Shown: one piece after another, positions 57,421 to 63,190 of the stretch
How the letters are laid out: each line of letters begins with the position of its first letter
Numbering within the stretch: the stretch's first letter is position 1
NCBI GenBank assembly: GCA_001938485.1
Contig: MQRK01231804.1
Location: 1-64,000, forward strand
Reading direction: 5' to 3'
Origin: Girardia tigrina
Lineage: Eukaryota
DNA length: 64,000 bases
Notes under the pieces: model-generated
What the model saw: the letters and a program-made list of their open reading frames with translations, nothing else
What the model was told of the DNA's origin: nothing
The model's database searches: none
Position numbers and translations under genes: made by a program

Positions 57421-60400
57421 AAATTAAAATAAATAAATCTTACTAATAACTTAGTACTTTTTATGAAATTCTGAACTTTTATTTTTATCGAAAAACTTTT
57501 GTAGAAGGTTTTATTTTGGATGCTTTTTTTTGAAAAAAGTGCTACCAATATAAACTTCGAAAAATGGTGTTGAGATTTTTTGAAAATATTTATTGATATC
57601 TCAATAATCGTATCCTTCAACGAATTGAAATTTATATTAATACAAAAGGAGGACCTTAAAGTTTTAATAATGTTAATCAGTCTGCGTTTGTATTTTTTTG
57701 TTTTTTGAAAAATCCTCAAGTTTCATGAAGTTTTAAAATAATATCTCTCTGGCGCAGATGGCTGATTAATATTTTTTAGTTTTTTAAAAATAATTTAATT
57801 AATATTGTTGATTATTTATTTGAATTAATTATTTTAATTCCATTTTGTATAGTGAAAATATTCAAATATGTAAAAATTAAAAATAATAACAAATCCTGAA
57901 CAAATTTCTGAAAATTATTGTTGTAATAATTCTGTTTGAGATATTAATAAATTTATTAAAGCTAATGGTTGTCAATTATATTTTAATAATTTTTTTACGA
58001 AACTAATAAAATTTGATTGTGATAAAGTAATCATTTAAAACATCGATCACATATTACAAAATAAATTTAAAATTAAAATATTATTAAAAAATTAAATATT
58101 TAATTAATAACATAAAAATTGTTTAAAAGTAACTTTTTATTTTTTATGGAAAGACAAAATCATTTATGCGTGATAATTAAGTTCATAAATTAAAAGAAAA
58201 TAGAATTTAATTAAACAATACAAAAATGCTGTTGTCAAATAAATGTCATTTTACTTCCTGTTATATAAAGTGGAGATTTTTTTATTTTCGAAAAAATATT
58301 TTAAAATTTTCATAAAGAATAATAAATTTGATAATTTTAAGACCATTTTAAATTATCAAATTGTAATTAAATATCAAAAAATAATTATATATATATATAT
58401 NNNNNNNNNNNNNNNNNNNNNNNNNNNNNNNNNNNNNNNNNNNNNNNNNNAATTTGATATTTTACGATAATCTAAATACAATTCTAAAATAATTTGAAGA
58501 AATCAAATAAAAAAGTTAACTAATAAAAATTTTATTCGCATTTAAAAATTTGTTCTCAAATTCAAAAGATTTCGGACATCTGCTTTTCAATTCAAATGAA
58601 TTCGGACACCTACTATTTAAAATCTTGTAACATCGCCCTTTGCTTTTATGGCATCTTCCATTCTTCTATTCATTGAATTGTATAAATTCTGACATTTATC
58701 AATGGGAAAATTATTCCATATTGCTAAAATTTTATTCTGCAAATCAATTTTATTTTTAGGACATTTTTTTCGTAATTCCTTTTTCATAATTGCCCAAACG
58801 TTCTCTATAGAACTTAAATCTGGGCTTCCAGGAGGATATATTATTTTTCATCATCCAAGTTTTTGTAAATTTAGAAGTATGACAAAATGCTCCATCTTGT
58901 TGAAAAATGAAATCTCCATTGTCAAAAATATTGCGTAATAGATGGGGTGAGACTTTCCATTTATATATCGGTATACAACTCCAAATCATAAACGTCCTGG
59001 AAATTTCAGAGTTCGGTTTAAACAGTCCGATAATAATGACTCGGTACTAAGTCTTAAGACCGATTTTCTATTTTCACCCATAGATAATTCAAAACGAGAT
59101 TCATCTGAAAAATAACTTTATTCCAATCATTTTGGCTCAATTTACTATGATTAAGAGCCCATTCAAGTCTCTTTTTCTTTTGAATAGGTGACAGAAACGG
59201 TTTGTTTTTAGCCTTAAAGAAGTGTTACGTAATGCTTATATTTCATTAAAAAAAGCTTACCTTGTAGAATGAATAATTTAATTCATGTATTCGACGTAGA
59301 CAAGTGAACGGAGAAGAAGAAATGCCTGTTTGCATACTCCATTTCTCGTTCATTTTTTGAACAGTAGCACGACGATATTGAGGAATTAACCTCTTCAAAC
59401 ACCGGTTATCAGTAGCGGAAGTCAACTTTAGTCGTCCAGATTTCTTTGGCGATGAGTTATTCTGACGGTATTTAGCTTTTTTAATTTTATCGAACACCGT
59501 CGATTTACTCATCACTAAAATTTTTGAAATTGCCCTTACTGATTTTCCTTTAACATGCATGGCAAATATTTTCTCACACATTCGCGTATACATCTTTTTT
59601 CCACGAACCATATTTTAAAAATAACAAAAATTTAATCGACTGAAATATTTAAACAATAATAATAATAATTCTTTTGAATTGAAAAGCAGATGTCCGAATT
59701 CTTTTGAATTTGAAAACAAATTTTTAAATGCGAATAAAATTTTATTAGTTAACTTTTTTATTTGATTTCTTCAAATTATTTTAGAATTGTATTTAGATTA
59801 TCATAAAATATCAAATTAATTCATCTGTCACGACCCTCTCGAGTTAAAACATTTTCAAAAGCTCAAAAGCCCACAGTGGTTATTATGGGTCAACCACAAC
59901 CCAATGAATTTATTTACTTATTCTCTGTTACATGTTCGACTGTATTTGGGTCGGACGCCTCTTCTCACTTGACATCTGACTAGCAGTGCCAAGCTTGAAG
60001 GGACTGCGGGTTCAGTTCAAGACAGGACAGGCTATGGGCAGTGTCAATCGGGGTTGATTTCATCTTGTAGGTACATATTCTTCTCTAGTGAATGCATTGC
60101 TCATGCTTGTATAAAATGTGTCGGTGATTATAGCTTGAAGCACTGTGATGTAATATTTGAGACTTGCGCCACTGTTGTGTCTGCATGTGAACTTGTGGCA
60201 CCGTCATGTCTGGTTTATCTAAAATTACGAAAATATTATTATATGTTATTGTGTATCGTTATATATTGTATATCAATTTATTCTATATCAACAACAGATT
60301 TACCTAGATAATAATCAATTTAAGTCGTAATTCAAGTCGCTAATTCACGTCAATAATCAAAACAAAATCATTTAGTAAAACGTATTCGCATTTATATATT

Positions 60401-60506
60401 CAATAATCTAAATTTCATCATTACATTAATCGGTTAACGTCTTATCAGTTGAATGAACATATCTCTCAATATTTATTGATTAATTAGACCGTTGTGAATC
60501 AACTGT

Positions 60507-61126
60507 TTACTGTTCCGCACCGGTGGATACATTATTAATCACGAACCGCGTTGGATCATCTAGGTATAATGCGATTGCCTTTTGCTCATAGTTAAACGGG
60601 ACTGATCTCACGTCGGTGATAACCGGGATTTTATCGTATCCTCCATTGGAACTCTGATTATCATCGTCAGCGTATGTTCTCCAATTACATACTACCTCAG
60701 GGTCTCTCTTGCCTGATTTATTCGGCTTATGATAACCTCGGGACATGTCTTATGAGGACGACGGCAACGTCAGGACGGGCTTTACTTCTATTTAATAAAA
60801 CTGAAAGAGGTTAGAATTTAAATATCATTATTATTATGTAAAATACCTAATTATAAATGGATACATTTATTAAAATGGTAATAAAACCTTTCACAAAACT
60901 TTTAAAATTTACATTTGTTTCGATTCAGCAACTGTTCAGAAATTGTCCGGAGGAAGTTGATTCGGGTTAAGCTCTGATTATCTAAGGTAATGCTCGGTAA
61001 TGATTCTCGGATATCCTCCAAATATTTCGCTTTCAAAATCGTCTCAATGTATTCTTCTCTTCTATCGACGTAGTTGTCGTTTGGTTCTGGTTGGTTTTGT
61101 TTCGACTTTAAATGTTGATTGCTCAA
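60507..61126 (-). pseudogene. Candidate spliced accessory gene inside the LTR (minus strand), function unknown
   Basis: TATAAATA at 61191-61184. 74-codon frame 61126-60902 with a TTG start. Intron 60912-60801 (GTAAAT...CTAAC CTCTTTCAG). Downstream 79-aa ATG ORF 60746-60507. Confidence 0.45.
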
Positions 61127-61404
61127 ATTTGGTCGTCAAAATTGTTCTCAAAATGGTGTGTCTTTAATGCAAAATGACTGCGTTATTTATACATGGGTCT
61201 GTCGTCATGCCTTACCGTTGAACCAATCACTGTTTGACAGGACGAGATTCTAAAATTTTGGACTGTTGTTGGCTGGCATATGTTGCTTACTTACTGGTTA
61301 TTCTAATCGATACACCCTGTTTTAGATTTGCACACTGTATGGACGGTCGATTGTGATGACCGGTGTGCGATTGTGATTGTCATGCCTCTGAGTCATAGTG
61401 ATTC

Positions 61405-61919
61405 ATGCTGATTAATCGCATGACTGTTATTTTTGGATTTATGGTTGACTCACGTAAGTTTTTTAATCTAACCTTTATAATTAATTTAATTTCTTGCATT
61501 TCATTCAAGGGGTCACAACTTTCCATCCAAAGATCACACGGGAAAACGGCTTTCTGTCATCGATAGTCCCCACTGAGACCTACGCGGAGAGGGTCATTTG
61601 TTCAAATTCGGCCACTGGGTCACTCGGTAATGCTCTTATTATTTTTCGTCTTGTCATTAATTAACTTTGAATCTATCAGGGTCCACAACTTTTCTCCAAT
61701 TCACACAAATTTCTGATGTGTTCTTCTCATGAATGTTCTTTACAGAAGCCTATCCAGGGAGTGCCAGCTATATAATTTCTTTCATCGGGTAAGTTTTTAT
61801 TCGACTCTGCTTGTTTTTTTTAATTATTTATGTTGCATTTCTAGTTTTCATGCGGTGCTCGTAACATTCTATCGGCATACGAGGATGCCAGGGACAATAA
61901 TCTGGGACTCAATTTGTGA
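61405..61919 (+). pseudogene. Candidate 4-exon mini-gene inside the LTR (plus strand), function unknown
   Basis: Introns 61454-61509, 61627-61679 and 61789-61844 (56, 53, 56 nt; GTAAGT/GTAATG...AG). The spliced frame is open for 72 codons; a second frame from 61729 continues across intron 3 to 61919. Confidence 0.5.
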
Positions 61920-63190
61920 TCTTGTCATTCTATATGATCTTCAAATACATGTATCATAATAACTTCTTGATTCTTTTTTCTTTATTTATTATATTTGTGA
62001 TACACGTCTGCGTATATGGGTTTTCGACCGCAACACATCTATAATACAAATAAGTACATATTATTTATAATTTAAAATTTTTAATAAGAATTATTTTACG
62101 TGTCCGAATACATATGAATTTGGGTAGTAGGAACGAAAGCTTTGTCAGTTATTAAAAAAAACTGTAAATAAATTTTTAATTTAATTTTGTCTTAAATGGA
62201 TTATATATATTATGGATTTTATATGTTATATATTCTAAGGAGCATTTTGACATATTTTTTTGATAAATTTATTTAGTTTTAAGCAACGTTATAGTTTTAC
62301 CACCGCGTAATATTCTTTTTGATGCCTCGTTGGAGAAGAATAATTGAAAGTAATGTCGACTAAATATTCATTCTTACCTAATAAATACAATATTTAAATG
62401 AAATAATTAAAGCGTATTGAAAAAATAAAAGCAAAAATTCAATTATTAAAATTTAAACATTTATATATATTTTTTTATAAACAAATTAGATTGAAATAAA
62501 TTTTTCTTTTATGATAAAATTAATGGAAGATTTAATGAACAAAATATCGAATAGTTTTAGAAAAAAATAAATTGCTTTGATGTTTAAGAATTATTTGAAA
62601 ATTGTTTGTTTTAATTCTTAAATAGAAAATATCAAATAATAAAAACAAAGAAAATAAATCCAGATATTAAATTGTAATTCCAGATTAAAAAAATATATTT
62701 GAGACTCTTCTGAAATCATTCTGTCATAAATATGTATCAAATATCCTCCGGCCAATCATGTGGAGAGGGGGGTGAATTTGAGTTTCGATTAATTATTTTA
62801 TATTTCTCAAAAACATTTAAGTTAACATTTTCTCTACAAAAAAACTTAAACAAAAATTTTTAGAATTATTAAAAAGCAAAAATAATTCTTTTATTTATTT
62901 GGAATGTTTATTATTATTATTATTATTGAAATTATACATAAAGAAATTATATTTTTTCTCAGTTGGAAATCTGATTATTTTATTCGATGGTTTTCGGGGA
63001 GGGGGAAATACAATATGTAATTTTAGAAACTTAAAATATAATTAATATATTTTTTTGGTTTATTGAACATGTAATTATAATTATTAAAAAATTGAATTTT
63101 TTTTAAATATCATAATTCAAATTGAGTTTATTTAGATAATTTACTCTTTAAATTTAATTTTAAATAATTTAAATTATATTTGAAATGATA

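Follow-up and report, generated by a model that had tools for sequence, protein, structure and literature searches.

Why retroelements keep introns in their antisense RNAs has been a question since TART and HeT-A, and the role of such introns is called elusive in the text available from one report (PMC2615633). The same design is met here in an unrelated class of element, within a 64,000-nt stretch of the Girardia tigrina genome (contig MQRK01231804.1, positions 1 to 64,000; hereafter the window). The earlier note on this DNA described three AT-rich GT-AG segments of 56, 53 and 56 nt inside a solo long terminal repeat (LTR), gave two peptides predicted from the spliced exons, and proposed that the LTR carries a spliced cargo gene for a protein. 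The three segments are present as described and both peptides translate as written. The locus therefore raises the question of whether these introns are genuinely spliced, and whether the exons between them encode a protein.

The segment at 59826-62035 (2210 nt; sense strand minus) is indeed a solo LTR, and belongs to a giant Burro-like Ty3/gypsy family. It has the TG..CA termini and the 4-nt target-site duplication expected of a Ty3/gypsy solo LTR, with CATC at 59822-59825 on the left and at 62036-62039 on the right; contigs with the empty-site joint (59821 to 62036) and insertion-free copies of the host repeat exist. Duplications of 4 nt were also found around other complete copies (9 of the 14 LTR rows with both ends, repeated loci included). 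The 18-nt left LTR end has 388 exact matches in the genome (G000), and the family is dispersed and encodes an integrase, as read from a sister-subfamily element. The insertion target is the terminal inverted repeat of a high-copy MITE-like element, which occupies 58451-59825 and 62036-62130 of the window.

The sense orientation was read from relatives of the window copy. Among the 100 matches listed for the left LTR end, at least 27 loci have one common flank, and the flank at this end reads as a primer-binding site (PBS) on the minus strand in 7 of the 30 loci read and in all 11 of the larger copies fetched. The PBS, taken from these relatives, is complementary to the 3' end of the host tRNA-Pro(TGG) genes, and the nearest LTR bearing it is 81% identical to the window LTR over 214 nt. 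At the right (plus-side) LTR end, TGG occurs nearby in 6 copies only, none of them with a PBS-like flank. A short purine run before the 3' LTR is common to three elements (L116, L140, and L152), so that both the PBS and the purine tract of a Ty3/gypsy element are found among the relatives. As minor observations, one of these elements has a stretch of about 100 nt close to its 3' LTR (L116:6233-6338) that looks like the PBS-side leader, and tRNA-Pro(TGG) genes at L239-L241 lie in tandem arrays, often about 646 nt apart.

The internal genes were read from the sister-subfamily element, whose LTR has 69% identity to that of the window over the first 214 nt. It measures 28,717 nt between its outer LTR ends, close to the near-30-kb size of Burro, is flanked by ACTA, and has two LTRs that are 97-99.7% alike. 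Its minus-strand domains, spread over several ORF pieces, follow the order Ty3 capsid, zinc knuckle, ubiquitin-like, mononegavirus-type fusion, PR, RT, RH, and INT, i.e., a Ty3-type capsid with the PR-RT-RH-INT order of pol. The env-like fusion domain between gag and pol (PF24664) was matched twice (E 1e-25), and the ubiquitin-like domain at E 3e-5, which is below the curated cut-off. No BIR, BCL2, MATH, ankyrin, or midasin-like domain was found in the 8 ORF pieces scanned, which make up part of the internal region. A weak dUTPase match (E 0.0055, below cut-off) lies between protease and RT in the pol ORF of L098 (G000:C227859, residues 548-639). According to the available text of its report, Burro (GYPSM1) of planarians is similarly about 29 kb long, with two LTRs, the PR-RT-RH-INT order, an env-like mononegavirus fusion domain between gag and pol, and a ubiquitin-like domain; unlike the present case, that text mentions no antisense RNA and no LTR gene (PMC6431247).

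Since the PBS and gag-pol lie on the minus strand in relatives, the sense strand of the window LTR is minus and the three introns are antisense to the genomic RNA, which was one of the two options offered earlier. A predicted sense promoter (61184-61227, minus strand), consisting of a CCAAT box at 61223-61227 and a TATA box at 61191-61184, recurs as a pair in 12 of the 15 copies tested, from three subfamilies, and places the antisense exons in U3, at the high-coordinate side of the LTR. Genomic matches to a probe across intron 2 comprised 22 with the intron and 0 without it, as would be expected if the intron never stands in splice orientation on the copied strand. The introns likely survive reverse transcription because they run backwards on the packaged RNA.

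On the plus strand, intron 1 (61454-61509, 56 nt, GC 0.20), intron 2 (61627-61679, 53 nt, GC 0.26), and intron 3 (61789-61844, 56 nt, GC 0.25) separate exons of 49, 117, 109, and 75 nt with a GC content of 0.35-0.52. Exon 2 (61510-61626) keeps its 117 nt in 21 of 25 copies and measures 120 nt in the sister subfamily, exon 3 (61680-61788) keeps its length in 20 of 24 copies, and the last exon, taken to its poly(A) site, spans 61845-61962, with the variant poly(A) hexamer AATACA at 61944-61949. Between 61300 and 62035, a strict short-intron pattern occurs twice on the plus strand and 0 times on the other; 2000 dinucleotide shuffles gave a maximum of 1, reached in 33 of them. At 17 further LTR ends, a set that includes the window copy and one repeated locus, at least one antisense intron was present in 16 and a sense-strand intron in 3.

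Exons 2 and 3 are related over their full length (z 6.1; 0 of 500 shuffles), and exon 4 shows no relation to either. The exon duplication suggested before thus holds, exon 3 being a duplicate of exon 2. The U3 exons differ in blocks among subfamilies. At several right ends (L005, L007, L011, L015, L147, L150, and L159), last exons and intra-exon blocks are swapped among subfamilies at fixed length, which is a sign of frequent U3 recombination. In the alignments of the two copy sets described below, exons often differ in length by multiples of 10 nt (85/95; 97/117/137), and the unit of exon plus intron measures about 165-175 bp, a hint of helical or nucleosome phasing in U3.

Conservation was assessed in 29 copies of the window type (set A) and 27 of the sister type (set B) after duplicate removal; 4 A copies were left out because their exons 1-2 are non-homologous or have diverged too far, as were 3 partial B copies. 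In set A, 122 of 139 splice dinucleotides are retained, versus 544 of 840 for other GT/AG (p 0.022), and in set B 123 of 126, versus 677 of 853 (p 0.014), P values that are optimistic given the relatedness of the copies. In set B, one acceptor coincides with the sense TATA box in reverse, and leaving that site out gives 108/109. Donor and acceptor are kept in 19/24 and 19/24 copies for intron 1, 22/23 and 23/24 for intron 2, and 23/23 and 16/21 for intron 3. Donor 3 takes the forms GTAGGT (8 copies), GTCAGT (6), GTGAGT (5), GTAAGT (3), and two singletons, with changes mainly at +3/+4; this drift within allowed forms points to splicing and not to a protein-binding site. Subfamilies with an unrelated last exon bring their own acceptor. 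The conservation of splice sites among copies, which had been proposed as a check, is therefore borne out, and we consider it very probable that splicing of the antisense introns is real and under selection.

RNA contigs came from four unstranded runs of one sample, "RNA-type" being a guessed run class. They skip introns 1, 2, and 3, with GT..AG joints for introns 2 (two contigs) and 3, and the deepest contig has 107 letters versus 216 in the DNA, the difference being introns 2 and 3. RNA junctions are thus seen for all three introns, but the contigs that show them stem from sister copies and not from the window copy. An untemplated A tail behind 61962 in two runs marks a poly(A) site 73 nt inside the LTR edge, and a poly(A) hexamer (AATACA, AATATA, or AATAAA) is present in 20 of the 22 copies covering the site. 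The flank at 62401-63124 is nearly empty in the two RNA-type runs relaid, and DNA-type contigs cover it. Contigs from the antisense region extend to 60502 and 61176, and the spliced contig at 61176 passes the TATA box. The sole splice joint on a contig identical to the window copy (440 nt) skips a further antisense intron of 119 nt at 60810-60928 (plus strand), through which DNA-type contigs read among the DNA-run joints listed. The acceptor of this intron is kept in close copies only, and it is likely incidental, as its donor is the predicted sense branch point reversed.

A few other leads were followed in these data. An alternative acceptor within exon 3 was rejected, since the 68 unaligned contig letters are the diverged first half of the sister-copy exon 3. 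A hairpin between the spliced exons and the LTR left end was no better than shuffles, the exons gave no conserved RNA fold (z-scores inconsistent, from +4.4 to -2.8), and they have no Rfam match at E<=1. A loose contig end at donor 1 had no match among 188 loci, and in run X5 two contigs go from donor 1 (61454) to non-LTR sequence, possibly a host exon at another insertion.

The antisense exons lack the marks of a captured cargo gene, namely a conserved start, stop, and frame and a dN/dS below neutral. In set A, dN/dS in the frame proposed earlier is 0.92 versus a column-shuffle null of 0.76 +- 0.10, the best frame of set B gives 0.69-0.72, no different from the null, and none of the six frames tested in A and B falls below it; control internal ORFs of the family gave 0.15 and 0.19. 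Variability by codon position is 0.246, 0.232, and 0.227, with the third position not raised, and the exons vary more than the intron interiors (0.235 vs 0.174). The ATG is found in 18 of 25 A copies and absent from 7. From ATG to stop there are 10, 14, 26 (four copies), 41, 46, 53 (five copies), 63, 72, 87, or 111 codons, or the frame runs to the end of a truncated copy, and it exceeds 100 codons in 1 of 25 copies.

Nor is it confirmed that a single frameshift divides a protein of about 115 aa, as had been supposed: the stop at 61730-61732 in exon 3 is common to 12 of the 25 copies, and the other 13 have no second ATG. Subfamilies share stops at different places (codons 27, 54, and 73), which implies that lineages spread while carrying them. 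No continuous ORF is conserved among copies: exon 2, although homologous in A and B, has a different open frame in each, the B open frame lacks Met in some copies, and many B copies share a 10-nt exon length difference (85 vs 95 nt). The exon 2 peptide has no Pfam match. Pointing the other way, stops are depleted in one frame per set (0.021 against a null of 0.050 in one set and 0.013 against 0.042 in the other; P 0.017 in either case, uncorrected for six frames), and a shared-versus-singleton test in the frame of the earlier note gave p 0.027 for exons 1-4, yet 0.46 for exons 1-2. On balance, the antisense spliced RNA is probably non-coding.

The sense strand of the same solo LTR holds a better candidate for a protein gene. 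Copy differences spaced by three bases revealed a micro-ORF at 60507-60746 (minus strand), whose predicted 79-aa product contains an acidic run as well as the motif P-x-I-x-[DN]-V-[RQ]-S-[IV]. Its protein has 139 matches in genome G000 among 150 candidates scored, 114 of them stop-free, counts that include duplicates and come from protein-based picking, which favours open frames. Start and stop are common to the copies, and 27 of 30 indels relative to the window copy are multiples of three, although these are not independent events. For the A type, dN/dS is 0.55 versus a null of 0.71 (P 0.07), and DNA-picked A copies have a 76-77-codon frame in 4 of 6 assessable cases. Eighteen of 25 B-type LTR ends have a 56-61-codon ORF at the equivalent place, the other 7 being gapped or too short; most of the 18 carry the motif and the rest close variants, and 12 B ORFs, chosen by motif, gave a dN/dS of 0.55 versus 0.82 (P 0.008). 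The sense micro-ORF is thus likely a protein gene, as judged from its conservation among copies. The claim that every solo LTR is a self-contained gene is not supported for the antisense exons and fits this ORF better, but two complete LTRs of another subfamily, one with an N gap and an insertion, lack it.

Searches with the micro-ORF gave no Pfam match below E 0.06 and, by word search, no homologue of 43-139 aa; a profile search of 1.84 billion proteins gave a single match, to a repeat protein of 1120 aa, which was taken as chance. Its structure model is unfolded and of low confidence (pLDDT 59.7, pTM 0.14), and the P-x-I-x-D-V-R-S motif is presumably akin to short docking motifs, for instance the SUMO-interacting kind. 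ORFs that lie in or overlap an LTR are known from MMTV (sag) and lentiviruses (nef), in both cases in U3. The micro-ORF is like them in being a probable small protein gene in an LTR, a likeness of arrangement, and unlike them it sits behind the predicted promoter. This placement means that a solo LTR could express the micro-ORF alone. A sense intron (GT..CTAAC..AG) is predicted before it at 60802-60912 (minus strand) from the sequence and by-eye likeness in copies, with no joint seen in RNA; if used, unspliced RNA would have to be packaged. The AT-rich stretch concerned (60912-60802 minus, 60810-60928 plus) may be an intron on both strands.

For the U3 side of the LTR, we favour, with some reserve, a spliced, polyadenylated, and likely non-coding antisense RNA whose introns and poly(A) site form a splice-and-stop cassette, likely ending antisense transcription at the LTR edge. 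Antisense transcription would cross the micro-ORF region and the sense promoter, the RNA would be handled like a host mRNA by way of three short U3 introns, and it would be cleaved 73 nt short of the LTR edge. Within a 3' LTR, the cleavage point would lie just ahead of the internal genes and might leave less antisense RNA against gag-env-pol, and antisense transcription across the promoter might in addition lower sense transcription. The cassette would present the antisense RNA as an ordinary mRNA and would be copied along with each LTR, solo LTRs included. Introns can shield a transcript from silencing, as described for human HUSH in the available text of one study (PMC8770142). That termination or camouflage is the main role of the antisense RNA is a tentative proposal, which we hold less firmly than the anatomy of the cassette.

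Other explanations deserve weight. The antisense RNA may be a non-coding source or target of piRNA/siRNA that restrains the element, a role that has been proposed for the HeT-A and TART antisense RNAs, with splicing aiding stability or export. We consider this unlikely. In its favour, the anatomy is that of HeT-A/TART antisense RNAs, with several introns, no ORF, and spacing kept, in the accessible parts of the reports (PMC1636488, PMC2615633), planarian LTR elements are piRNA targets according to part of another (PMC8532177), and the antisense RNA has its complement in U3 of the genomic RNA, with a spliced contig reaching 61176, beyond the TATA box. However, the poly(A) site keeps the RNA within the LTR, and self-silencing must benefit the element to account for the conservation. 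Alternatively, the exon DNA may be a U3 enhancer array in which GC-rich modules alternate with AT-rich spacers about every 165-175 bp, and at whose borders read-through RNA happens to be spliced cryptically. The exons do lie upstream of the sense CCAAT/TATA pair, are tandem-duplicated and block-variable among subfamilies, and vary more than the introns, and two other antisense splice signals (the 60810 donor and the B acceptor at the TATA box) are by-products of sense signals. As a full account we find this quite unlikely, because splice GT/AG are kept better than other GT/AG, donors wander within the consensus, unrelated last exons each have an acceptor, the strand bias is strong, and the poly(A) hexamer is conserved as well. 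The exon DNA could nevertheless act as an enhancer under the splice-and-stop reading too.

It is quite unlikely that the antisense RNA encodes a small, fast-evolving protein that is broken in most copies. The stop-depleted frame in each set, the stable lengths of exons 2 and 3, the ATG of 18 copies, and the shared-versus-singleton result for exons 1-4, yet not for exons 1-2, are what such a protein might leave. Against it, dN/dS does not differ from the null in both sets under a test that detects the B sense micro-ORF and gives the low values of the internal ORFs, subfamilies share their stops and one copy alone passes 100 codons, the open frame of B reads the DNA homologous to A in another way, with Met missing from some B copies, and exon 2 matches nothing in Pfam.

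Antisense RNAs of this anatomy have precedents. As in Drosophila TART and HeT-A, described in the consulted portions of two papers (PMC1636488, PMC2615633), the RNA is antisense to the transposition RNA and has several introns and no ORF, and intron size and spacing are kept among diverged subfamilies; its role there is unresolved. In the planarian, several antisense introns are removed in vivo, as seen in contigs of one sample, and no ORF is conserved, with weak stop depletion. TART and HeT-A are, by contrast, telomeric non-LTR elements with introns in UTR repeats, and the present unit lies in the U3 of a dispersed Ty3/gypsy LTR family with an integrase. The window unit is a member neither of the HeT-A/TART kind nor of the BLV AS1/AS2 kind; it works like the former and recalls the latter. 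In deltaretroviruses, the antisense RNA leaves the 3' LTR for the internal region, whereas here the introns and poly(A) site all lie inside the LTR. The likeness to BLV AS1/AS2 and HTLV-1 HBZ is that of an LTR-derived antisense RNA that is spliced and polyadenylated, as far as described in extracts of two sources (PMC4855707, PMC10186651); in the first of them, the coding capacity of the BLV antisense forms is doubtful and AS1-L overlaps microRNAs (PMC4855707). The plant elements Grande, RIRE2, and Retand similarly have an antisense unit in most copies of an LTR family, but, in the portion of the report at hand, as ORFs between pol and the 3' LTR, unlike the unit here, which is inside the LTR and has no coding signature (PMC7264820). 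Among the literature listings examined, none described a multi-intron antisense unit that is conserved and lies entirely inside the LTR of a Ty3/gypsy element; the original planarian genome paper on Burro, outside the scope of these listings, may with its supplements describe LTR transcripts.

Bidirectional transcription of solo LTRs is known from the available text of one source (PMC10186651). The present unit lies in U3 and includes a poly(A) site of its own, so that it is present in each solo LTR, and solo LTRs, usually deemed inert promoters, can thus carry a whole spliced transcription unit; on the opposite strand lies a likely protein gene that escapes both gene finders and repeat maskers. 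Given hundreds of natural variants, evidence of selection on splice sites, and a built-in poly(A) site, the question of why antisense introns are kept becomes testable by comparison. A doubtful but broader possibility is that the LTR is a two-strand cassette, in which a multi-intron U3 antisense RNA both disguises antisense transcription and brings it to an end, and the region behind the promoter expresses a sense micro-protein that bears a conserved linear motif. If so, hundreds of solo LTRs would be self-contained regulatory units able to act in trans on the family and on host chromatin. Elsewhere in the window, positions 420-655 hold a truncated second copy of the LTR left end, 77% identical over 214 nt.
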